Assembly: GCA_050246755.1 (NCBI GenBank)
Contig: JBFWVL010000001.1
Span: forward strand, 1,760,001 to 1,824,000
Origin: Bacteriovoracia bacterium
GTDB taxonomy: Bacteria > Bdellovibrionota > UBA1018 > CAIPTA01
Direction of reading: 5' to 3'
Length of the DNA stretch: 64,000 bases
How positions within the stretch are numbered: position 1 is the stretch's first letter; each line of letters opens with the position of its first letter. A model generated the notes under the pieces. That model was not told the DNA's origin, did not search any database, and saw only the letters and a list, made by a program, of their open reading frames with translations. Positions 3-11,105 of this stretch are shown one piece after another. A program made the translations under genes and the position numbers.

Positions 3-545
3 GGCGTGATGAACGGCGCCTCAATGATTTTTCATCGGAGCCTGCTGGCCCGGGTGGGCGGCTTCGAGGTGGCGCTGAATCAGATCACCGACGATCTCTA
101 CCTCGCTAATAAATTTAACGGGCTCGGTGCCCGGTTCGCGCTTTTGCCCAATAATGTGGTGGAGCATATTCCGGCGCAGTCTTTTTCCGTTTTCTGGAAC
201 CGCGTTCTGCGTTGGCTGTTGATCGCGCGCTGCAACCGCAAAGATCTTTTCTACGGCGCGCCCACGAGCTGGGTATGGCAATGGAACTTGCTGATGCTGC
301 TGGTTACCTGCGATTCCCGCTTCCTGCTTCTCTTCGGAGCCGCGCTGGCTGGGCGCCTCCTGTTCTCGATGATTTTTCAGGGAACGCTAGCCGGATGGCG
401 TGAATGCTGGAAGGTGATCGTGATCCCGATCTACGATTTGCTGGGGCCCGTGGCCTGGACTATCTCCCTCTTTACGAAAAATATCGTGTGGGCCGGGAAC
501 GAGCTGATCGTGAGTTCGAGTGGTACTTTGGAGCACAAGAAGTAA
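3..545 (+). CDS. GT2 glycosyltransferase, HpnI / ceramide glucosyltransferase-like (C-terminal part, 5'-truncated by the window)
   Basis: Contains GGF...ITDD (third Asp motif), an RVLRW variant of QxxRW, and C-terminal TM helices ending IVWAG. Its stop abuts the cyclase ATG (TAAATG). Confidence 0.75.
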   Translation, partial: GVMNGASMIFHRSLLARVGGFEVALNQITDDLYLANKFNGLGARFALLPNNVVEHIPAQSFSVFWNRVLRWLLIARCNRKDLFYGAPTSWVWQWNLLMLLVTCDSRFLLLFGAALAGRLLFSMIFQGTLAGWRECWKVIVIPIYDLLGPVAWTISLFTKNIVWAGNELIVSSSGTLEHKK

Positions 546-2444
546 ATGGCCTATAGCCCCGCAATGAAAACCGCGATCGCTAAAGCGGAAGATTTTCTGC
601 TCGCTGCCCAGAACAAAGATGGCTCCTGGATCGGGGAGGTGGGCCTCAATCCCGGGCCTACGGCCCAGGCGGTGATGCTCTACGCGAGCCTGCAGAAAAA
701 ATTCCCGGCTTCGGTGGCACCGAAGGCGAAGCAGTATGTGCTGCGCACCCAAAATCCCGACGGGGGATGGAGCACGCATCCTGGTGCGCCCAGCGAGGTT
801 TCGCTTACCTGTGAATGCTACGTGGCGCTACGGCTCTTGGGAGTGCCTGCATCCGATCCCGTTTGCGCCAAAGCGCGGAGCGTGATCGAAGCGGCGGGGG
901 GAACGAGCGCGGCCAATCCCTGGACCCAGCTTTATCTTGGCATCCTGGGAGTTCTTCCTTGGGAAAAAATCCAAATCATTCCCATCGAGCTCGTGCTCCA
1001 GCCCGCATTTTCACCATTTTCGATCGAGCATCTAGCCTACTGGGTGAGGGTGATCACGGTGCCGATGATGCTCGTGGGCGCAATTGGCCCTTATCCGCTC
1101 GCGAAAATGGCGGGAGAGCTGGCCGAAGAACTCTCCACCGAAAATTTCGACTCGCGAAGAAATATGGGGATGATCGGAAAAATCATCGCGAAGTGCGCCG
1201 CCGTGGCGGGCCACGTGGGAGTGCCCGGGCTGCGCGCAGTGGCGATTAAAAAATCCCTGGAGTATATCCGCAGCTGGACCGAGAAACACGGCGACTTCGG
1301 CGGCAATACTTGCACTGCGATCAACGTGATCGTGGCGTATTCGAAAATCGGCGAACATGAAGAGGAAGTGCGCAAAGGGCTCGAAGCGTTCATGAGCTAC
1401 GCGATCGAGACGGAGGAGGAATGGCGCCTGCAAACCTGCCAGAGCCATGTCTGGGACGCGGCCTTCGTGATGCAGGCTTTGCGCGGGGAAAACCCCAGTG
1501 CGAAGGTAAAGGCCGCGCTCGAGCGCGGAGCGGAGTGGCTTACCGATCGCCAGATCGTGAAAACGCGCGGGCCCTGGAGCAAGAACGTGAAGGCCGCCCC
1601 GGGGGGGTGGTGTTTCGGGAATCGCCACGAGCATTTTCCCGTAACCGATTGCACGGCGGTTTCGGTTTTGGCGCTGAAAGATACCGTGCCCGATTATTGG
1701 AATACCCGCGGCTCCCGGCTCGCGGTGGACTGGCTCGTGGGGATGCAGCACGGCACGGGCGGCTGGTCGGCCTACGAAAAATTCGAGCGCGGCGAGCTCC
1801 TCAACCGCCTGGTGACGTTCAAGGATATTCCCGATGCCCTTGTGGATCGCCCGAAGGCCGACGTTTCGGCCAAGGTAGTGGAGGCGCTCTGCGCGGCAAG
1901 GCCCTGGCATCCGGAGCTTCATTCCGTATTGGCCGATGCCCGGGCCTTCCTGCTCGCGAAACGGGAAACTTCCTACCAGGTTTGGCGGGGGAACTACGGA
2001 ATAAATTATATTTATGGAACATCCTTCGCCGCCAAGGCTTTGCGGGCCATCGATGGGCATCCCAGCGTGGACTGGGCTCCCGCTGTGCTGCGCTTTTTCT
2101 TGAATCGCCAGAACGGAGATGGGGGCTGGGGTGAGAGCGACGCCAGCTACTTTCATAAGGAGAAGGCGGGGTACGGGCCCTCCACGGTTACCCAAACGGC
2201 CTGGGCTCTATTGGGTCTTATTCACGCGTTGGATCCGTCAAACCCCCCTAAAGAGGCCTTAAAAGCGATTAAAAATGGGGTAGAGTACCTGCTTAAAAAA
2301 CAGGAGGAAGCCGGCAATTGGACCGAGGAACTGTCTTTGTGCACGGTTTTTCCGGGCATGGTTTACTTCCACTACGAATTTTATCCCGTGGTATTTCCGC
2401 TGCTCGCTTTGCGCGAAGCGGGCAAAATACTGGCAGCTCACTAG
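546..2444 (+). CDS. Class II triterpene cyclase (squalene-hopene / oxidosqualene cyclase family) with DCTA catalytic motif
   Basis: 632 aa with QW repeats (QNKDGSW, QNPDGGW, QHGTGGW, QNGDGGWGE, QEEAGNW), SHVWD, GGWCF...PVTDCTA, and GINYIYGT. Confidence 0.92.
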   Translation: MAYSPAMKTAIAKAEDFLLAAQNKDGSWIGEVGLNPGPTAQAVMLYASLQKKFPASVAPKAKQYVLRTQNPDGGWSTHPGAPSEVSLTCECYVALRLLGVPASDPVCAKARSVIEAAGGTSAANPWTQLYLGILGVLPWEKIQIIPIELVLQPAFSPFSIEHLAYWVRVITVPMMLVGAIGPYPLAKMAGELAEELSTENFDSRRNMGMIGKIIAKCAAVAGHVGVPGLRAVAIKKSLEYIRSWTEKHGDFGGNTCTAINVIVAYSKIGEHEEEVRKGLEAFMSYAIETEEEWRLQTCQSHVWDAAFVMQALRGENPSAKVKAALERGAEWLTDRQIVKTRGPWSKNVKAAPGGWCFGNRHEHFPVTDCTAVSVLALKDTVPDYWNTRGSRLAVDWLVGMQHGTGGWSAYEKFERGELLNRLVTFKDIPDALVDRPKADVSAKVVEALCAARPWHPELHSVLADARAFLLAKRETSYQVWRGNYGINYIYGTSFAAKALRAIDGHPSVDWAPAVLRFFLNRQNGDGGWGESDASYFHKEKAGYGPSTVTQTAWALLGLIHALDPSNPPKEALKAIKNGVEYLLKKQEEAGNWTEELSLCTVFPGMVYFHYEFYPVVFPLLALREAGKILAAH

Positions 2445-2576: not shown

Positions 2577-3992
2577 ATGTTGAAGCTAAAGCTGTTGATG
2601 TTGCTTACCGTAGGTTCCACCGCGCTCGCCGCCAATTCCTTCGCTGGAGTTATATACGATAAAGGCGGGATGCCCCGCTGTATCTCGATGGAAGGAAGAG
2701 ACCTCCTTCTCCTCTGGGATGCATCAGACCTCTACTCCCGGGAGATCTATACCCTCGACACCGGTACCTATACGGCCCGCGATACCATGAATCCGCAGAC
2801 CTATAACTGCCACAGCTTGCCCGCGAAGCTGAGCGAAGTGCCAAAATCTGATTTAACCGTTCTCGCCAAAGGCGCCAAAAGCGTGGGCCCATTCAGCCTG
2901 GCCAGCGCCCGCATGCAGAAATCCTTAGACCAAATTCGCAATGGCGCTACCGCCTACCGCGAAGAAACCGACGCAAAATCCTTCCTGCGCAAGTACCCCA
3001 TTTCGAATTTCACGCTCGAAACCAACCGCCGGCTCACCGCGATGTATGGTGTGGGCTTCGTTTCCGAGATCTACGCCGAGATCATCGCCAGCGACCCAAA
3101 CAACAAGGCATTCTCCGATTTGATCAACGGCAACCTTCGTTCCCAGGCTTCCGATCTGGCCGCCGTGAAAAAGAATCGCACCGTGATCTACGTGAAAGGA
3201 ATCGGCCACGAGCTGAACAATTCCAAGCAGTACGATGTGTTCGTGGATAATCTCCGCAAAGGCGGCGTGGAAGTGAAAATCGTGAAAACTCACTCTTGGG
3301 ACACGATCGATACGAACGCCGCGATCGTGAAGAGAGCGCTCGAGATCGAGCTCAAGAAAGGCAAAAGCCTGATCTTGATCGGCCTTAGCAAGGGCGGCTC
3401 GGAATCCCTCCTCGCGCTTTCTATGCTTAGCAAGACTCTCGATGCGAAGCCCGCTGGCTACGGAAAAGTGGAAGCCTACCTCGGCCTCTCGGGCGTATAT
3501 GGCGGATCTTTCCTTGTGGACTGGGCCGGCAGCCTTCCCCAGCGCTTGATCATGAGTCATCTCATGAAAGACGAATATGAAAAAGAAGGCAAGAAGCTGC
3601 CCACGATCGACGGAATCCTCGACGTGAAATCCGAACCCGTGGCCGACGTGATGAAGCAAGTAGCCCATAACGGCTTGCCCCAGGAAACCACTTATTTCAG
3701 CATCGTGGGCGCGATCACCGGCGATGGTCTCGCCGCTAAAACTTCCTATATTCGCAGCTTGCAGCAAGACATCATCCGCGCGCAGCTCGACGGCTACGGC
3801 GCGAACGATGGATACATCGAGTATCCCGGAACCGCGGTACCGAAAAAATTAGTGAAGAAGTCCTATATCGGTAGCTTGAATGCGAGCCATTCCCTTGTGG
3901 ACGGCACGTACCAAGGGCAGCCGGTGGTGGGTGGCCCGGAAAACGTAGTGAACGCCATCTCGATGGCCGTTTTCCAGATTCTCGCAAAGTAA
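2577..3992 (+). CDS. Secreted alpha/beta-hydrolase (lipase/acyltransferase-like)
   Basis: Sec signal peptide. VKGIG oxyanion segment, GLSKG nucleophile elbow (3381-3395), and NDG and ASH as candidate Asp/His triad members. Confidence 0.75.
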   Translation: MLKLKLLMLLTVGSTALAANSFAGVIYDKGGMPRCISMEGRDLLLLWDASDLYSREIYTLDTGTYTARDTMNPQTYNCHSLPAKLSEVPKSDLTVLAKGAKSVGPFSLASARMQKSLDQIRNGATAYREETDAKSFLRKYPISNFTLETNRRLTAMYGVGFVSEIYAEIIASDPNNKAFSDLINGNLRSQASDLAAVKKNRTVIYVKGIGHELNNSKQYDVFVDNLRKGGVEVKIVKTHSWDTIDTNAAIVKRALEIELKKGKSLILIGLSKGGSESLLALSMLSKTLDAKPAGYGKVEAYLGLSGVYGGSFLVDWAGSLPQRLIMSHLMKDEYEKEGKKLPTIDGILDVKSEPVADVMKQVAHNGLPQETTYFSIVGAITGDGLAAKTSYIRSLQQDIIRAQLDGYGANDGYIEYPGTAVPKKLVKKSYIGSLNASHSLVDGTYQGQPVVGGPENVVNAISMAVFQILAK

Positions 3993-4035: not shown

Positions 4036-5427
4036 ATGTCGAACGTTGTTAATAAGAATAGTCCTGACTTTTTGATCGTTGGCGCTAGCATCGCGGGCAC
4101 CGCCCTGGCGGTTGGTCTCAGAGAAAAAGGTTTCAACGTGATGCTGATCGAGCGCGAAGCTTCGCCCCGTGAGCGCTTCAAGGGAGAATTTCTCCAGCCC
4201 TTCGCCGTGAAACAATTCACGAAGCTAGGCTTCGGCGATCTCTTCCACGCCGAAGGCACCCAGAAGATCCGCGAATTGAAATTCCGCGATCTCGACAAGG
4301 ACAATAACGTGGTGAGCGAAGTACTCGTGCCCTACCTGGGCCAAGATTTTGCCGCCGTGGTTCCCCATAAAGATTTGATCACCGGCCTCCAGAAGCGCGC
4401 CACCGAGCTTTTAGGCGAAAGCTTCCTACTCGGCACCACCGCGGAACCGCTGAACCAAGCTGACGCCGATTTTCTAGAGCACCCACGCTTCCTGATCAAG
4501 CGCGAAGGCCAAGAGTCCTTCGAGATCTCACCCCGTTTCGTGATCGGCTGCGACGGACGCCAGTCGGCGGTTCGTTCCTGGATGGGGGGCCCCAAGGCTC
4601 CCGCCATGGGTTCGCCCACCTTCGGCACCCAGCCCGAATTCATCGTGGGCGCCGAGCTTCACGGCAAACGTCCACTCCCTTGCCGTTACGAAGTGATCCG
4701 TACCGCGGGCCAAGGCACAATCGCGCTTTTCCAAACCCGGCCGGAATCGCAGCGCCTCTACTGGAACGCGCTCGCCGTTCCCGGTTCGAATAAAAAAACC
4801 TGGGAGAGCTCGCTCCAGAAGATCGTTCCCGAGCTGAAAGAGCTGGCCGACCTCGATTCCTCCGACGTGGAGAACGTAGCTGGCAGCCCCGCCGACCAAG
4901 TCTGGTTCGGCCCCGCCGCGAAATCGAACTTCTTCCTCGTGGGTGACGCGCTCGCCGTTACCTCTCCGCTCGGCGGACAGGGCATGACCTGCGCCATGCG
5001 CGAAGTGGAATCTCTTCTCCAGAGTTTCCAGCAGTACGTTGATGGTGTTTCTACCCTCGGCGAAGTACGGGAAGACTACTCTTCGCTCGCCCGCTCCACC
5101 TACTACCATATCTGCCTGCTGAACTTCGGCCTCTACTATCTCTTCTACGCCTCGGGCCGTATGTTCAAGCTCGTTTCCCGCTTCATTCTCGGGGAATGGA
5201 ATAAGCATCCCGAAATTTGCGCTCGCGTGGGCGCGCTCTTCAGCGGCATGAGCTTCGACACTCCCGGCCTCGGTGAGCTTCTCCGTCTTTGGGGAATCCT
5301 ATCCTGGGTACAACCCGCCGCCCACAAGCCGGCTCCTCGCAAATCCTTCATCGGCGCCGCGCTCTACCGCCGCCGTTATACGGATGCGCGCGAGCAGCAC
5401 CGCGCCAATAAAGCGCACTCCGCGTAA
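4036..5427 (+). CDS. FAD-dependent monooxygenase, squalene epoxidase-like
   Basis: N-terminal IVGASIAG...LIERE...GEFLQP (SQLE-type GE[FL]LQP), DG motif GCDGRQS, and GD motif GDALAVTSPLGGQGMT. Confidence 0.8.
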   Translation: MSNVVNKNSPDFLIVGASIAGTALAVGLREKGFNVMLIEREASPRERFKGEFLQPFAVKQFTKLGFGDLFHAEGTQKIRELKFRDLDKDNNVVSEVLVPYLGQDFAAVVPHKDLITGLQKRATELLGESFLLGTTAEPLNQADADFLEHPRFLIKREGQESFEISPRFVIGCDGRQSAVRSWMGGPKAPAMGSPTFGTQPEFIVGAELHGKRPLPCRYEVIRTAGQGTIALFQTRPESQRLYWNALAVPGSNKKTWESSLQKIVPELKELADLDSSDVENVAGSPADQVWFGPAAKSNFFLVGDALAVTSPLGGQGMTCAMREVESLLQSFQQYVDGVSTLGEVREDYSSLARSTYYHICLLNFGLYYLFYASGRMFKLVSRFILGEWNKHPEICARVGALFSGMSFDTPGLGELLRLWGILSWVQPAAHKPAPRKSFIGAALYRRRYTDAREQHRANKAHSA

Positions 5428-5451: not shown

Positions 5452-5487
5452 GGGGCCGAACTTTGGTTCGGCCCCTTTTTCTTTTTA
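5452..5487 (+). terminator. Rho-independent terminator
   Basis: Perfect 10-bp stem GGGGCCGAAC-TTTG-GTTCGGCCCC followed by a T-tract. Confidence 0.9.
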
Positions 5488-5642: not shown

Positions 5643-6968
5643 ATGCCTTTTTCCGCCCCCCGAAAAGCAAAATCGCTTTCGCTCATTTTATTGAGCTGCG
5701 CGCTTTGCCCGGCGGCGGACGCGGCCCGGCCGATTTTAACGCCGCGAAAGGCCGCACCGCTGCTGATCTACGATATTGGGCTCGAATTGTGGGGCGCAGG
5801 CGGCGCACGCTCGCTCGCGAAAACCCCGGTGAATCCGGACAATCTCGTGGCGCGTATTCCGGAAACCGCGCTCACGGCGGAAGCGCGGCCAGACGTGCGC
5901 CTCCGCGTGAAAAAAGCCCGCGTAACGGCGCGGCCCCGCCTAATCTATACGCAAAACAATACGAAATCGGGCGCGGCCAAAACCACCAAGAACGTGGGCC
6001 GGATCCAGTGGAGCGAAGCCTACGCCTCGCTCGACATTTCGGATACGCTAGCGCTCGCCTACGGGTTGCAAAATTACCAGTGGGGCCCTTCTGAGTCGGC
6101 GAGCCCCAGCAATAGAATTTTCCGCGATACGGTAGAGGCCAAAGACGTGCTCTACGTAGTAAAGGGCAAACACCTCGTGCGCGTGAATTTTACTCCTCGG
6201 CCGGGGTGGAGCGAAGTGGCGCTCTTCGAAGTTTCCACGAACGGAAGCCCGGAATACGAAGCCCAGGAAAAGTTCGCCCAGAAGGCGCTCCTGAAATCGG
6301 AGTATTCCTGGGGCGGGGGCGCGGATTATGCCGGCATCGTTACGGGCTGGAGAAACCACGATGGGCTCTGGATCGGAGAGTACTTTAATTCCGACGTCTA
6401 CGAAGGCCTTTCGCTTTTTTTCGATATCAGCCACCAGATGGGAAGCCTGGCGTACTATCCCGTGGATAATTCCGGCGTCACCGTTCTTTCCCAGGCGCAT
6501 AAGTCCGATAAGAAAATTTATACCTTCGCCACCTTCGGCGGCCACTACGCGTTCGTGAACGGAATCGATCTCCGCTTCGAGGGAATTTTTCAGGAAGCCG
6601 GTTACAGCAAGAAACAAGTGCAGTCGGTATGGAACGCCCTCGCTTCGAACGTGCCGCAGCAGCAGGTTTTCTTCGCCATGAACTCGGCGCTGGCGTACCA
6701 GAACGGGCTCGAGTTTCCCGGGCAGAAATATCTATTCTCCTCCGTGCGCTATCCGAATTTTTTGAACGTGCGGAACTGGACGCTCTACGCGCGCGGCCTT
6801 CTTTCGCTGCAGGATTCCTCGAGCTCGGCCTTTCTGAGCTCGGAAAACGCCGTGGGCCAGCGCGGAACGATTTTCGCGAGCGTAGCCGCCTTCTCGGGAA
6901 AAATGGATTCGGAGCTGCGGGGCCTCGTGGCCTACGCGGGAATATTGGGGTACCGGCATGCCTGGTAG
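5643..6968 (+). CDS. Probable outer-membrane beta-barrel protein of the Lol-like ABC cassette
   Basis: Signal peptide, alternating aromatic/polar beta-strand pattern, C-terminal aromatic residue (GYRHAW); first gene of the cassette. Confidence 0.6.
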   Translation: MPFSAPRKAKSLSLILLSCALCPAADAARPILTPRKAAPLLIYDIGLELWGAGGARSLAKTPVNPDNLVARIPETALTAEARPDVRLRVKKARVTARPRLIYTQNNTKSGAAKTTKNVGRIQWSEAYASLDISDTLALAYGLQNYQWGPSESASPSNRIFRDTVEAKDVLYVVKGKHLVRVNFTPRPGWSEVALFEVSTNGSPEYEAQEKFAQKALLKSEYSWGGGADYAGIVTGWRNHDGLWIGEYFNSDVYEGLSLFFDISHQMGSLAYYPVDNSGVTVLSQAHKSDKKIYTFATFGGHYAFVNGIDLRFEGIFQEAGYSKKQVQSVWNALASNVPQQQVFFAMNSALAYQNGLEFPGQKYLFSSVRYPNFLNVRNWTLYARGLLSLQDSSSSAFLSSENAVGQRGTIFASVAAFSGKMDSELRGLVAYAGILGYRHAW

Positions 6969-6974
6969 GAGTGA

Positions 6975-7655
6975 GTGATGAGCAAGTCGATCATAAAATT
7001 GGAAAATATTTCGAAGGATTACCGCATGGGTCAGATCCGCGTGCCCGCGCTGAAATCCGTGAACCTGGATATTTTCGCCGGTGAATTCACCGCCGTGATC
7101 GGAGCTTCCGGCTCGGGCAAGAGCACGCTGCTGAATATGATTGGCTGCATCGATCAGCCCGATACCGGGAAGATCTTTCTCGACGGCGTGAATATCATTC
7201 CCCTGAGCGACGATAAGAAGAGCGATCTCCGGAACCAGAAAATTGGATTTATTTTTCAGTCGTTCAATCTCGTGCCGGTGCTTTCGGTATTCGAGAACGT
7301 AGAGCTTCCGCTGCTCATCAATCCCGCCATCTCGGCCGAAGACCGCAAAAAGCGCGTGCTCCAGGCCATCGACGATGTGGGTCTCCAGGCGTACGCCAAA
7401 AATCTTCCCGATCAGCTCTCGGGAGGGCAACGCCAGCGCGTGGCGATCGCCCGCGCCCTGGCCGGCAATCCCGTGCTGGTATTAGCCGACGAGCCTACCG
7501 CCAACCTCGATTCGGATTCTTCCAACAAGATCCTCGATCTGATGATCGATCTCAACTCCAAGCGCGGGATCACCTTTCTCTTCTCCACCCACGATGAAAA
7601 GCTGATGAAGCGCGTTTCCCGTATCATTCACATCAAAGACGGGGTGGTTGGCTGA
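6975..7655 (+). CDS. ABC transporter ATP-binding protein, LolD/MacB-like
   Basis: GASGSGKST, FQSFNL, LSGGQRQR, LADEPT and STHD motifs. Confidence 0.95.
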   Translation: MMSKSIIKLENISKDYRMGQIRVPALKSVNLDIFAGEFTAVIGASGSGKSTLLNMIGCIDQPDTGKIFLDGVNIIPLSDDKKSDLRNQKIGFIFQSFNLVPVLSVFENVELPLLINPAISAEDRKKRVLQAIDDVGLQAYAKNLPDQLSGGQRQRVAIARALAGNPVLVLADEPTANLDSDSSNKILDLMIDLNSKRGITFLFSTHDEKLMKRVSRIIHIKDGVVG

Positions 7656-9010
7656 TGTGGCAGTTCTGGTTCCTTTCCCTTAGAAACCTTCGTCGCAATT
7701 CCAAGCGGAATCTCGCCACGGGCTGCGCGATCGCGTTCGGTTTCTGCGGGATCCTGCTTTTGCAGGCCTACGCCTTTCGCGTGGAGAATTTTCTGCGCGT
7801 GCACACGCTCTACTCCCTGCACACTGGACATATCGTGTTGCTCGCGGACCAGGGCTTCGATAAATTTCGCTATAATCCCCGCAAGTATAGCCTCACGCCC
7901 GAAGACCAGCGCTTCATCCTGAACGCCTTGAAAGACGAGGCCGGGATCGAGGCGGTGGAGAAGCAAATCACCGGGCAGGGTCTGCTGGGGAACGGCTGTA
8001 TCTCGCTGCCGTTCATAGCGCGGGGATTAGAGCCCGCGGTCGACAAGATCCTCCGGGCGCACCCGCAAGTAAAGGAATGGATGCCCAACCAAAAATTCCT
8101 GAAATCAGGGCAGGGGCTTTCCGATTCTAAGGCAGGTGAAGGCCTACTCCTGAGTTTGGGGCTGGCTACGGCGCTAGGCAAAACCACGATGCTCGGCGAT
8201 ATTCCGCCTGGTGCGCCGATTACGCTCGTGGATTGCGCGGCTCCCGACGTGAAGGAGCAGCTGAAAAAAGATTCCAACGTGCAGCTGCTTTCCGGCACTT
8301 GGCGGGGAGCAATGTCGGCGGTGGATGGAGAAGCCATCGGAATCTTCCAGACCGGGTTCCAGGAAGCCGACAATTCCGCCATTTTGGCCGACGTGGCCTT
8401 GCTCCAAAAATTGTTCGATACCGAGAACGTGGAGAGAATTTCGGTCTGGCTTAAAGACGATAAAAAAATCCCCGAGCTTTCCAAAAAACTAAACGAAAAG
8501 TTCGCCGCCGCCGGGAAGAAATATGATCTCGTTTCTTGGAATGAAGAACGGCTTTCCCCTTACTATTTCGGCTCGAAGCAATTTCTCGACACTCTTTCGG
8601 CCTTCGTTTCGATGATCCTCGCCGCGGTGATCGCCCTCTCCGTGCTCAATTCCACCACCATGACGATCATGGAACGTTCCCAGGAAATCGGCATGTACCG
8701 CGCGATGGGATTCCGCCGCCGGCAGGTGCGACGCCTTTACCTGCAGGAATCGCTGCTGCTCTCCTTGATTTCGCTCGGGGTGGGCACGCTTCTAACCATC
8801 GCGGTGATCCTGGCCATCAATTCCGCCAATATTGTTTACTATCCGCCTGGTGTCTCAAACGGGATGGTCCTTCGTTTCGTGCTTAACGAAAGCTCTGCGG
8901 CGAAGGCCGCGGGGATGATCCTAGTCCTGGTTTTATTGGCTACGTTCATGGCGGTTTCTAGCCGGCTCCGGCAAAAACCCGCTGACTTATTGGGAGGTAC
9001 TTTACGATGA
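7655..9010 (+). CDS. ABC transporter permease, FtsX/LolC-E/MacB family
   Basis: N-terminal RNLRRN plus a TM helix, large periplasmic domain, ERSQEIGMYRAMGF, and 3 C-terminal TMs. Confidence 0.9.
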   Translation: MWQFWFLSLRNLRRNSKRNLATGCAIAFGFCGILLLQAYAFRVENFLRVHTLYSLHTGHIVLLADQGFDKFRYNPRKYSLTPEDQRFILNALKDEAGIEAVEKQITGQGLLGNGCISLPFIARGLEPAVDKILRAHPQVKEWMPNQKFLKSGQGLSDSKAGEGLLLSLGLATALGKTTMLGDIPPGAPITLVDCAAPDVKEQLKKDSNVQLLSGTWRGAMSAVDGEAIGIFQTGFQEADNSAILADVALLQKLFDTENVERISVWLKDDKKIPELSKKLNEKFAAAGKKYDLVSWNEERLSPYYFGSKQFLDTLSAFVSMILAAVIALSVLNSTTMTIMERSQEIGMYRAMGFRRRQVRRLYLQESLLLSLISLGVGTLLTIAVILAINSANIVYYPPGVSNGMVLRFVLNESSAAKAAGMILVLVLLATFMAVSSRLRQKPADLLGGTLR

Positions 9011-9777
9011 TCCGGTTTCTTATGGTTTTTTTCCTCAGCGTTTCCGCCATCGCCGCTTCGGGCCCTAAGGGCAAAGCTCCGGCTAAAGGAGAAGGTGTGA
9101 ATGCGCTCGAGCTTCTTAAGGTGAGTGACCGCGCACGCGGAGCCGCCGCCGCGCTCCAGGGCGTGAGCTGGACTTCCCAGGTGAAATCCGTGGAGGCCGA
9201 TGAGGAAAGCAGCGTAACCTACGCGATCAAGATCCGTGGGAACGACGCGCTCGCCGAAGCCATCGATCCTCCCCGCCAGAAAGGAGAGCTCGCGCTCTTC
9301 AACGACCGCACACTCTGGTTTTTTAAGCCGGGCCTGAAGAAACCCATTAGCATTTCTCTACGCCAGAAGCTCATGGGCCAGGCGGCAAACGGCGATATCG
9401 CTTCCACGCAGTACGCCCGCGACTACGAACCCGTTTCCACGAAGCAGGAAACCATCAACGGACACCTGGTTTGGCTCCTCGATCTCAAGGCGAAAGCCAA
9501 GAACGTGACCTACGACCGCATCCGTTACTGGATCACCGATAAAGAGAAGCTCGCCGTGAAAGCGGAGTTCCTCACCGTTTCTGGCCAGGTTTTTAAGATC
9601 GCGGAATTCAAGTATGGAAACACGATCGTGCTCAAAGGCACCAAGTTTCCTTTCGTGGGCGAGATGAAGATTCGCGACGCGAATAATCCCAAGAACGTGA
9701 CCACCATCACTTATAGAAATCCCCGGGAAGAAGCGCATGCTCCGAGCCTTTTCAACGTGAACAACTTGGTAAAGTAA
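9007..9777 (+). CDS. LolA-like outer-membrane lipoprotein-sorting family protein
   Basis: Signal peptide and motifs LWFFKPG..ISLRQKLMGQAANGDIA and TYDRI; lies between two permeases. Confidence 0.8.
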   Translation: MIRFLMVFFLSVSAIAASGPKGKAPAKGEGVNALELLKVSDRARGAAAALQGVSWTSQVKSVEADEESSVTYAIKIRGNDALAEAIDPPRQKGELALFNDRTLWFFKPGLKKPISISLRQKLMGQAANGDIASTQYARDYEPVSTKQETINGHLVWLLDLKAKAKNVTYDRIRYWITDKEKLAVKAEFLTVSGQVFKIAEFKYGNTIVLKGTKFPFVGEMKIRDANNPKNVTTITYRNPREEAHAPSLFNVNNLVK

Positions 9778-9779
9778 GA

Positions 9780-11105
9780 ATGTATACCTCGCGGAAACTA
9801 TTGATGCTCAAGCTGGCATCGAGAAATATCTTCCTGAACTGGCGCCATAGCTTGGCCACCGTGCTTGCGATCATGGCGGGCTTTACCTCCGTGGCGCTGC
9901 TGGACGGATTTATTTCCGCGATCAACGAAGTTTCTCAGGATGGCACCGTGAACAAGGGAATGACCGGGCATTTCTTGCTGGAAAAGCGCGGAGCCAAAGA
10001 TCATCTCTTCGAAGATCCTTGGCTCTATTCGCTGAGCAAAGAAGAGCAGGATAAAGTTTCGGGATGGCTTGAAGGTGATAAGCGCGTGAAAGCTTCGATG
10101 CGCTACCTCACGCTCAGTGGTCTCATTTCCAATGGGAAGAACTCGGCGATCTTCATTGGCGCCGGCATCGACGAAGCGCGCGGCCTGAAATTCCGCGGGG
10201 ATAAGTGGGCCTGGAATACCGTGGCCGGGAAACCTTTCTACCTCGATAATTCCGGATTCCAGATGGGCGTGGGTATGGCCACCCGGATGGACTGCAAGTT
10301 CAGCGAAAAGTACGACCTCAATAAAGACGGCTCCTATAAGGCCGAAGAGAGGCCGCTGGAATGCGCGAATCCCGTATTTCAAATTTCCGCTACCACGGAG
10401 CATGCTCAAGTGAACGCGCTCACGTTGAGCCCCACGGGCCTCGTGGATCTGCATATCCGAGAATACAACGATAAGATCATCTACTTGCCCCTCACGGCGG
10501 CCCAACAGCTCCTCGATACCGACCGGATCACTCGGTTCTCGGTACTGCTCAACGATGAAGGCACACGAAACGCCTTTGTTCGCGATTACGAAGAGAAAAT
10601 TAGGGCCTCGGGACTGGATCTTGAGGTCGTGCACTGGCTCGATCACCCCGTGGGCTCGGCTTCCAAAGGCGGGATGGCAGTGTTGAACATGTTCCGTTGG
10701 CTCTTCCTCACGATCGTGGCGGTGGTGGCCGTGATGTCGGTGGCTAATTCGCTGATGAAGAGCATCAACGAGCGGATCCGGGAGATCGGTACCCTGCGCA
10801 GCTATGGCTTCCGGCGTACCGATATCGTTCTTCTATTTTCGTTTGAAGGTCTGCTGCTGGGGTTCTTCGCCTGCCTGTTGGGAATAATCCTGAGTTCCGC
10901 CCTGGCTTTTGCGATTTCCAATGGAGGAATGACGTTCAATGCCGGCGTGATGAGCACGCCGCTGGCCATCAAGATCGATCTCGCGCTGGGCGTATGGGCA
11001 GGTTCTTCCTTCGTGCTGTGCCTGGTAACGTTCCTGGCTTCCTGGATTGTTTCCCGCCGGGCGGCGAAGATGACGATCGCCGATGCCTTACGGCATATCG
11101 CCTAA
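9780..11105 (+). CDS. ABC transporter permease, FtsX/LolC-E/MacB family
   Basis: RNIFLNWR plus TM, ERIREIGTLRSYGF, and C-terminal IADALRH. Confidence 0.9.
   Translation: MYTSRKLLMLKLASRNIFLNWRHSLATVLAIMAGFTSVALLDGFISAINEVSQDGTVNKGMTGHFLLEKRGAKDHLFEDPWLYSLSKEEQDKVSGWLEGDKRVKASMRYLTLSGLISNGKNSAIFIGAGIDEARGLKFRGDKWAWNTVAGKPFYLDNSGFQMGVGMATRMDCKFSEKYDLNKDGSYKAEERPLECANPVFQISATTEHAQVNALTLSPTGLVDLHIREYNDKIIYLPLTAAQQLLDTDRITRFSVLLNDEGTRNAFVRDYEEKIRASGLDLEVVHWLDHPVGSASKGGMAVLNMFRWLFLTIVAVVAVMSVANSLMKSINERIREIGTLRSYGFRRTDIVLLFSFEGLLLGFFACLLGIILSSALAFAISNGGMTFNAGVMSTPLAIKIDLALGVWAGSSFVLCLVTFLASWIVSRRAAKMTIADALRHIA

Follow-up and report, generated by a model that had tools for sequence, protein, structure and literature searches.

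Among molecular fossils, hopanes and steranes hold a major place. Which type of cyclase came first, and whether squalene or the O2-dependent oxidosqualene was the first substrate, is a question that bears on the history of oxygen and on how sterol synthesis originated. The triterpenoid cyclases comprise two families, squalene-hopene cyclases (SHCs) and oxidosqualene cyclases (OSCs), with the root placed between them and the ancestral substrate left undecided (McShea et al. 2025, PMC12414744, cited throughout for the available part of its text). The same source reports an elevated rate at active-site positions on the SHC stem and raises, in the conclusions, the possibility of an ancestor that used an epoxidized substrate. 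It further describes early-branching bacterial OSCs as inactive on squalene, which requires the greater acidity of SHCs, and two enzymes of the SHC crown, those of strains HM163 and HM164, as using oxidosqualene only, making hopanol and retaining the DxD[D] motif. The use of oxidosqualene by an SHC scaffold has also been obtained by mutagenesis: according to the available part of a review (PMC9634032), the D377C/V380E/V381A mutant of AaSHC cyclizes 2,3-oxidosqualene (Dang & Prestwich 2000), and deletion of G600 produces an enzyme that accepts only (3S)-oxidosqualene (Hoshino and co-workers).

The locus described here lies in a 64,000-nucleotide stretch of DNA (hereafter, the window) from a Bacteriovoracia bacterium of the phylum Bdellovibrionota (GenBank assembly GCA_050246755.1, contig JBFWVL010000001.1, positions 1,760,001 to 1,824,000). 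The gene at 546..2444 of the window (forward strand, as are all features of the window given below) starts with ATG and encodes a class II triterpene cyclase of 632 amino acids with two alpha/alpha-barrel domains, a member of what is denoted here the PVTDCTA lineage, or clade. In an unrooted tree, this clade is a third lineage on the internode between SHCs and OSCs, nested in neither family. We consider it probable, with moderate confidence, that the enzyme is specific for oxidosqualene, which a divergent epoxidase of its own would supply, and that the product is a 3-hydroxy triterpenoid other than a sterol.

The catalytic motif and the active-site pocket

The catalytic segment of the protein reads GGWCFGNRHEHFPVTDCTAV and contains FPVTDCTAV, with DCTA encoded by the codons GAT TGC ACG GCG at 1647-1658; the catalytic site is without D-x-D-D. 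In phmmer alignments, V366-T367-D368-C369-T370-A371 (1641..1658) matches D374-V375-D376-D377-T378-A379 of AaSHC (1gsz) and V453-S454-D455-C456-T457-A458 of human OSC (1w6k). The catalytic Asp is retained and both flanking carboxylates of SHCs, the equivalents of D374 and D377, are swapped exactly as in OSCs, resulting in an OSC-type Asp-Cys acid. V-T-D-C-T-A is invariant in the 32 clade rows of the alignment; in columns 366-369, where all of these have V, T, D and C, the OSC rows have I (69%) or V (30%), S (81%) or T (15%), D (100%) and C (98%), and the SHC-like rows, D (97%), V (39%), D (95%) and D (91%). The OSC pattern [VI]-[ST]-D-C-T-A-E is matched up to the Ala; the residue that follows is L, V or C in the clade and Glu in 100% of the OSC rows. 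The Thr that precedes the catalytic Asp is not unique to the clade because several canonical OSCs from metagenomes (loci L076, L096, L105, L110, L115-L117, L119 and L124) read I-T-D-C-T-A-E rather than I/V-S-D-C-T-A-E.

An earlier note, made from the letters of the window alone, had pointed to DCTA without DxDD on an otherwise SHC-like protein, and the translation and the alignments bear out this description. The strings that it took as SHC-like (AYWVRVITVP, QTCQSHVWD, DRPKADVSAK and GINYIYGT) are all present; the N-terminal extension of OSCs is indeed lacking, with median trimmed lengths of 633 amino acids for the clade, 664 for OSCs and 642 for SHCs; and in place of GGP[ML]F, the clade has L-N-P-G-P where OSCs carry G-P-[ML]-F-L. 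The stretch around AYE, which the note saw as closer to OSCs, is so: the pair Y410-E411 (1773..1778), located at the site of human OSC Tyr503 (AaSHC Y420-D421), begins with Tyr in the clade (100%) and in OSCs (94%), where 89% of SHCs have Phe, and ends with Glu (clade 91%, OSCs 98%), where 78% of SHCs have Asp, and the nearby R415 is in the OSC state as well. The possibility, also raised there, that the Cys codon is an assembly error is ruled out by the conservation of the motif, including this Cys, across the whole clade.

In SHCs, D376 is paired with H451, and in OSCs, Tyr98 enforces the boat conformation of the B-ring. In human OSC, Asp455 reportedly acts together with Cys456 and Cys533, and the His232/Tyr503 pair is said to serve as the base, in work attributed to Thoma and colleagues. 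The pocket of the clade is a mosaic of the two families. Among the 22 columns that separate the OSC consensus (at least 80%) from the SHC consensus (at least 60%), the clade has the SHC state in 12, the OSC state in seven and its own state in three. In addition to V366, T367 and C369 of the catalytic motif and to the Y410-E411 pair, the OSC-like residues are R415, F307, M174 and L134. The SHC-like residues are W166 (100% of the clade, where 94% of OSCs have His232), D439 (Glu in OSCs), V440 (100% of the clade, where 100% of OSCs have Cys533), K443 (basic, like H451 or R of SHCs), F425 and V or L at the site of human Tyr98 (Tyr in 76% of OSCs), next to which the clade keeps a residue that is deleted in all OSCs. 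Unique and invariant are N254 (Ile in both families), G358, Y484 (Trp in 95-100% of both families), V601 at the site of AaSHC G600, V606 and F608. Thus, of the residues that define OSCs beyond the catalytic motif, namely the second cysteine Cys533, the His232/Tyr503 pair and Tyr98, only Tyr503 is kept, as Y410, and the equivalent of Glu459, found in 100% of the OSC rows, is absent. With V440 in the place of Cys533 and K443 retained, the acidity of the catalytic Asp is not readable from the sequence.

The protein passes the superfamily model TIGR01787 (412.4 bits against a cut-off of 322.7), and the Pfam domains PF13249 (212 bits) and PF13243 (262 bits) likewise place it among the class II triterpene cyclases. 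It narrowly misses the SHC equivalog model TIGR01507 (398.6 bits against 431.1) and falls far short of the OSC model TIGR03463 (261 bits against 851), on which ordinary SHCs of the phylum with DxDD reach 283 bits. The AlphaFold2 (AF2) model, built on an alignment of 34 sequences that agree fully at the catalytic Asp and at some 50 further columns, is confident (pLDDT 93). In Foldseek comparisons, the template modeling scores normalized to query (TMq) and target (TMt) are 0.87-0.89 and 0.89-0.91 for SHC (1sqc/2sqc), and 0.89 and 0.78 for human OSC (1w6k), such that the predicted fold is the one common to both families and the size is that of SHCs.

Distribution and phylogenetic position of the lineage

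A word-indexed search of 5.8 billion proteins returned, besides the protein of the window itself, 26 homologs at 42-54% identity, all from metagenomes or metagenome-assembled genomes (MAGs), and then fell to SHCs at no more than 35%. All 27 proteins of this closest set carry the signature PVTDC[TS]A, with PVTDCSA as a variant in one (P0017), as do five of five further clade members from genomes of the phylum; the 18 next homologs that were examined all carry D-x-D-D. This search missed divergent members of the clade that other searches recovered. An exhaustive HMMER pass over 1.84 billion representatives clustered at 50% identity yielded 4940 relatives at E<=0.001, of which only three full-length representatives (P0008, P0026 and P0170) and four fragments stood above the SHC background, which begins at 298 bits; ordinary SHCs come next, at about 33% identity. 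The motif and the pocket are kept among members of the clade that are 35-54% identical. A single-protein search of genome contigs found only a 26%-identical Scopulibacillus locus of the SqhC type, and viral contigs scanned for the OSC motif contained a single match, which is due to chance and is not a cyclase.

Within the phylum, a cyclase match of some kind turned up in 49 of the 401 genomes sampled. In the top 30 loci of this sample, the PVTDCTA type is found in the genome of the window (G000) and in five relatives (G398, G362, G073, G356 and G181), the relatives being MAGs that are 76-97% complete; it is found in none of the four same-genus genomes examined, and a canonical OSC in none of the 401. 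No description of the clade was found in a full-text search of the literature, with figures, subscription journals and bioRxiv supplements outside its scope. In the text of McShea et al. 2025, figures aside, neither 'DCTA' nor 'Bdellovibrio' occurs, although the trees could hold the clade as unnamed stem branches, and in the supplement, searched by term, 'DCTA' and the names of the tested strains are likewise missing. Taken together, these searches delineate a small, previously undescribed, discrete lineage of triterpene cyclases.

For the phylogenetic analysis, OSC references were collected by scanning metagenome contigs with back-translated SDCTAEGLK, which gave an open reading frame (ORF) with the motif in 61 of 80 loci, from which the long intron-free ones were taken, and OSC-type and SHC-type representatives from the exhaustive HMMER pass were added. 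In a FastTree phylogeny of 238 rows, the 32 clade rows are sister to the 54 OSC rows (support 97). A more careful tree was built with IQ-TREE (LG+C20+F+G4, PMSF) from 67 diverse rows, namely, 12 from the clade, 18 OSCs and 37 SHC-like proteins, the latter including SqhC-type, STC-type and D-x-D-C oddities. In this tree, the SHC-like group (99/94), the OSCs (100/100) and the clade (100/100) each occupy one side of a branch. The split is still seen (SH-aLRT 96) once 58 pocket and diagnostic columns are deleted, and the approximately unbiased (AU) test rejects a topology in which the clade is nested between two subgroups of SHCs (p 0.0075, delta lnL 38.8). Addition of four divergent, long-branch cyclase-like proteins, which nested in SHC subgroups, left the three groups undisturbed. 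Some caution is due because the OSC rows are biased towards one variant of the motif and towards ORFs without introns, the SHC rows represent the SHCs closest to the query, and the subgroups compared in the AU test were named after the tree had been seen.

These results reject an SHC of the crown with a convergent DCTA motif, and the scores, the tree position and the pocket residues speak strongly against an ordinary bacterial OSC; nesting within such OSCs had been named in the earlier note as an observation that would overturn its proposal, and the protein is outside the OSC group. The note had described a hybrid of SHC and OSC. The mosaic of the diagnostic columns agrees with this part of the description, but the protein is not an SHC that acquired DCTA; it belongs to a separate deep lineage. 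Of the two origins that had been offered, an evolutionary intermediate or an independent origin of epoxide specificity, the position outside all sampled SHC-like proteins favors the intermediate over convergence inside SHCs.

The tree is without an outgroup, so that whether the clade is sister to OSCs, sister to SHCs or basal depends on the root. Minimum-variance rooting places the root at the junction, with near-equal values on the three stems (variance 0.112 compared with 0.125 and 0.125) and a marginal preference for the OSC side (0.112). Parsimony of the acid motif would favor the clade as sister to OSCs because other class II cyclases use DxDD, which McShea et al. 2025 also refer to as canonical. 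A root on the OSC side, which would make the clade sister to SHCs and the DCTA acid with an epoxidized substrate ancestral to all triterpene cyclases, is unlikely, if far from negligible. Were it correct, hopene cyclases would have adapted to squalene, and to the DxDD acid, only later, with the clade and its partner oxygenase as a surviving witness of the ancestor with an epoxidized substrate that McShea et al. 2025 raise.

Two further kinds of unusual cyclase-like sequences were encountered. Three full-length two-domain proteins of 615-672 amino acids from genomes of family f22 of the phylum (L180 912..2927, forward strand; L181 1311..3236 and L182 1328..3172, reverse strand) lack any DxDD-type motif, form very long branches and may have lost or changed catalysis; as candidate outgroups, they were rejected because they nest inside SHC-like subgroups. 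Inside the SHC-like group, P0193 and P0268 read D-L-D-C-T-A, with D374 kept and D377 replaced by Cys, apparently an independent change; these two might match the oxidosqualene-only enzymes of the SHC crown with DxD[D] in the available text of McShea et al. 2025.

The partner monooxygenase and the gene neighborhood

Downstream of the cyclase, the window encodes a group-A FAD monooxygenase of 463 amino acids (4036..5427), a candidate squalene epoxidase. An ortholog of this protein (37-43% identity) directly adjoins the clade cyclase in all five relatives, so that the two genes are paired in six of six genomes; four of the relatives share a genus, hence the pairing amounts to about three independent lineages rather than six. 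At E<=1e-20, the monooxygenase is present in only seven of the 401 genomes of the phylum, the six with the clade cyclase and one more (G283). In the metagenomic data, six of the 26 cyclase contigs are equal in size to contigs with the monooxygenase (39148, 59361, 65944, 37055, 40679 and 12349), and the proportion is five of eight for cyclase contigs of 30 kb or longer, the non-matches being not interpretable because the word-indexed search missed divergent members of the clade.

The monooxygenase matches PF01494 (91 bits) and, marginally, the squalene epoxidase domain SE, PF08491 (21.6 bits, cut-off 20.1). The best sequence match in the PDB is human squalene monooxygenase, SQLE (E 4.4e-16, the next being 5.4e-8), and in Foldseek, SQLE has the highest TMq (0.72) and identity (23%). 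Several observations point the other way. SQLE ranks second in Foldseek, statistically tied with hydroxylases of the p-hydroxybenzoate type. Among the seven clade monooxygenases that were scanned, the SE domain is found at 16-29 bits in five and is absent in two, compared with 70-97 bits for canonical squalene monooxygenases (SQMOs) located beside true OSCs (n=4). In hhalign, mixed other flavoproteins (E 6.1e-37, score 281) exceed canonical SQMOs (E 3.9e-32, score 240). The tree of the monooxygenases has two long-branch outgroups joining the SQMOs and does not show sisterhood of the clade proteins to SQMOs. On balance, the identity of this neighbor as a putative squalene epoxidase is only moderately supported.

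The cyclase and the monooxygenase belong to a co-directional string of five genes. The first of these, located upstream of the window, is a squalene synthase (SQS; L003 16173..17261; PF00494 86 bits, TIGR01559 91 bits), the sole match in the genome to PF00494, the family of squalene and phytoene synthases. It is followed by a GT2/GT21 glycosyltransferase resembling HpnI, which starts upstream (L003 17383), with the C-terminal 179 of its 387 amino acids encoded at 6..545 of the window; it scores 95.8 bits with Glyco_transf_21 of Pfam and 173 bits with HpnI of NCBIfam, below the cut-off of 310. The stop codon of this gene (TAA, 543-545) abuts the ATG of the cyclase at 546. Between the cyclase and the monooxygenase lies orf471, a predicted secreted protein of 471 amino acids (2577..3992) that has no match in Pfam, NCBIfam or the PDB by sequence and no BLAST match at the loci of the five relatives. 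The leads from the ESM Atlas are alpha/beta-hydrolases of the LCAT/PGAP1 type, and a G-L-S-K-G string resembling a nucleophile elbow is visible, such that orf471 is possibly a hydrolase of this kind; an acyltransferase of the LCAT type would fit acylation of a 3-hydroxyl. The string is closed by a terminator-like hairpin at 5452..5475 (10 pairs, eight of them G-C, followed by a T-run), which has the longest stem in a consensus-only scan that gave 13 sites against 9.4 expected in shuffled sequences. Unlike the monooxygenase, the other genes of the cluster were not found beside the cyclase in the five relatives.

The next gene, for another predicted secreted protein (5643..6968, 441 amino acids), has no family match in Pfam or NCBIfam and is probably outside the cluster because it follows the hairpin. 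Right after it comes a Lol-like set consisting of an ABC ATPase, two FtsX-type permeases and a LolA-like protein (6975..11105); a role of this set in carrying a hydrophobic product out to the outer membrane would be pure speculation. In the genome, which is 95.7% complete, no P450 was found and no HpnH above the cut-off (best 69 bits against 225).

Elsewhere in the same genome, there is a second triterpene cyclase of 629 amino acids with DPDVDDTSA (L002 1396..3285, reverse strand, corresponding to 26815-28557 of contig 2). Its best NCBIfam model, TIGR04277, is that of the tetrahymanol synthase of the eukaryotic type (371 bits, cut-off 500), compared with 318 bits for hopene cyclase, and several genomes of the phylum encode relatives with A-P-D-x-D-D-T-A-E (L021, L025, L030, L033 and L034). 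This protein may bear on a bacterial origin of squalene-tetrahymanol cyclases.

Substrate, product and comparison with described cyclases

The oxidosqualene reading is supported by the conserved monooxygenase neighbor, by the presence of SQS in the gene string and by the behavior of the D377C-type and G600-deletion mutants of AaSHC as summarized in the available part of the review. The pathway would begin with SQS, two genes upstream of the cyclase, making squalene, which the neighboring FAD monooxygenase would convert to 2,3-oxidosqualene. Asp368, its acidity tuned by Cys369 as in OSCs and backed by an SHC-type Asp439/Lys443 pair instead of the second cysteine of OSCs, would then open the epoxide. 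The polyene would fold in a pocket that lacks the Tyr98 associated with the boat and the His232 base, and a 3-hydroxy polycyclic triterpenoid, rather than lanosterol or cycloartenol, would therefore be expected, most likely an all-chair product resembling hopanol or dammarenol or else a new skeleton. The 3-hydroxyl may be glycosylated or acylated by enzymes of the cluster; the glycosyltransferase and the possible LCAT-like hydrolase would both require a hydroxyl, a weak argument for its presence.

Several observations weigh against this scheme. By overall similarity, the cyclase is nearer to SHCs than to OSCs (399 bits with TIGR01507 compared with 261 bits with the OSC model, and 266 bits with 1gsz compared with 156 bits with 1w6k), and its pocket lacks the second OSC cysteine and keeps the SHC-like basic K443. 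Because the second cyclase, with DVDD, needs squalene too, the SQS need not be dedicated to this pathway. Among the relatives, a PF00494 gene was found in only one of the five (G181), and in the other four, one of which is 97% complete, the SQS of the window found no match; uptake of the substrate from prey, an unrecognized synthase or a different substrate are possibilities. Finally, in G283, the monooxygenase and an ortholog of SQS were found without a clade cyclase; the contig ends 134 bp past the monooxygenase, and the gene upstream is a histidine kinase.

A rival reading is that the enzyme still cyclizes squalene, as SHCs do, with the flavoprotein hydroxylating or otherwise modifying the cyclized product. 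Asp368, backed by Asp439, Lys443 and Tyr490, might be acidic enough to protonate an alkene, given that the equivalents of D447 and H451 of SHC (D439 and the basic K443) and of Y495 (Y490) are kept, the overall sequence is closer to SHCs and the monooxygenase is without a specific epoxidase signature. This is, nevertheless, quite unlikely, considering that every member of the clade has lost the two carboxylates found on either side of the acid in 97% and 91% of the SHC-like rows, that the engineered triple mutant with D377C is listed with 2,3-oxidosqualene as its substrate in the available part of the review (PMC9634032) and that the OSC-type enzymes in the available text of McShea et al. 2025 (PMC12414744) are inactive on squalene. 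Another epoxidized isoprenoid, which the partner monooxygenase would form from something other than squalene (2,3;22,23-dioxidosqualene, a meroterpenoid or an epoxy-polyprenyl chain, for instance), is an unlikely substrate as well, although in four of the five relatives no gene for squalene or phytoene synthase was detected and the invariant pocket residues N254, G358, Y484, V601, V606 and F608 are unique to the clade; moreover, epoxy-polyprenyl cyclases form a separate clade near the triterpenoid cyclases in the available part of the same study. These relatives are, however, the incomplete MAGs mentioned above, SQS is part of the gene string here, an SQS homolog and another clade cyclase were found on contigs of the same size (11,204 bp), and the clade retains most of the aromatic residues that line the pocket in triterpene cyclases (W166, W303, F357, Y410, F425, Y490, F602, Y610 and Y613).

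That the protein could be a divergent but otherwise ordinary bacterial sterol synthase, making lanosterol or cycloartenol, is suggested by the V[ST]DCTA motif, given that some canonical OSCs also have I-T-DCTAE, by the Y410-E411 pair and by a monooxygenase next door as at bacterial OSC loci. This is very improbable: the score with TIGR03463 is no higher than those of SHCs of the phylum with DxDD, the protein falls outside the well-supported OSC group, the equivalents of His232, Cys533, Tyr98 and Glu459 are all missing, with W166 and V or L in two of these sites, and no P450 was found in the genome. Catalytic inactivity, or recruitment of the fold to a non-cyclase role, is hardly credible; divergent cyclase-like proteins without a DxDD-type motif do exist in the phylum, but an invariant catalytic Asp together with some 50 other invariant columns, the confident model and the retention of motif and pocket in distant members argue against decay. 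The preferred reading thus continues to be that of an oxidosqualene cyclase with a dedicated, putative epoxidase. It predicts an uncharacterized 3-hydroxy triterpenoid, possibly along with a glycoside or an ester of it, in bacteria of the Bdellovibrionota type, a potential new source of biomarkers, and the clade would provide a new scaffold for cyclase engineering. Furthermore, by splitting the long internode between SHCs and OSCs, the clade offers expressible enzymes for testing the order of events.

Among the known systems, the OSCs (lanosterol, cycloartenol and arborinol synthases; TIGR03463; 1w6k) share with the clade V/I-[ST]-D-C-T-A, the Tyr-Glu pair, R415, F307, M174, an adjoining flavin monooxygenase gene and the two-domain fold. 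In contrast to OSCs, the clade lies outside the OSC group in all trees, scores far below the family cut-off, is without the extra length, has Trp, Val and Val at the sites of His232, Cys533 and Tyr98, respectively, lacks Glu459 and the one-residue deletion beside Tyr98, and has a partner monooxygenase that is far from the canonical SQMOs of OSC loci. With SHCs (TIGR01507; 1gsz/2sqc), the clade shares size, architecture, the top pairwise and model scores, the equivalents of W169, D447, H451 (as a basic residue), F434, Y495, Y609 and Y612 and the SHC state in the majority of the diagnostic columns, but it differs by D374V, D377C, G600V, W489Y, I261N and R488N, by a score below the family cut-off and by exclusion from the SHC-like group. 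The engineered AaSHC mutants, as described in the available part of the review, resemble the clade in having D-C-T-A on an SHC-sized scaffold or an altered position 600, which is an invariant Val in the clade; these, however, were made in the laboratory by point mutation of a crown SHC and retain D374, whereas the clade is a natural, ancient, separate lineage with D374V and many other changes in the pocket. The enzymes of strains HM163 and HM164, which are bacterial and SHC-sized as well, indicate that the proposed chemistry, from oxidosqualene to 3-hydroxy hopanoids, exists in nature; going by their description in the available text, they are set apart by their place in the SHC crown and by DxD[D], given that the clade is outside the SHC group and without this motif.

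The partner protein has the group-A flavoprotein fold in common with squalene monooxygenase (SQLE, 6c6n; PF08491), which is also its best sequence relative, and, like it, is paired with a cyclase; it differs in the marginal match to SE and in that neither profile nor fold comparisons separate it from aromatic hydroxylases. Thus, compared with both described families, the clade joins the catalytic acid of OSCs to an SHC-sized protein with a partly SHC-like pocket, and it travels with a divergent oxygenase of its own.

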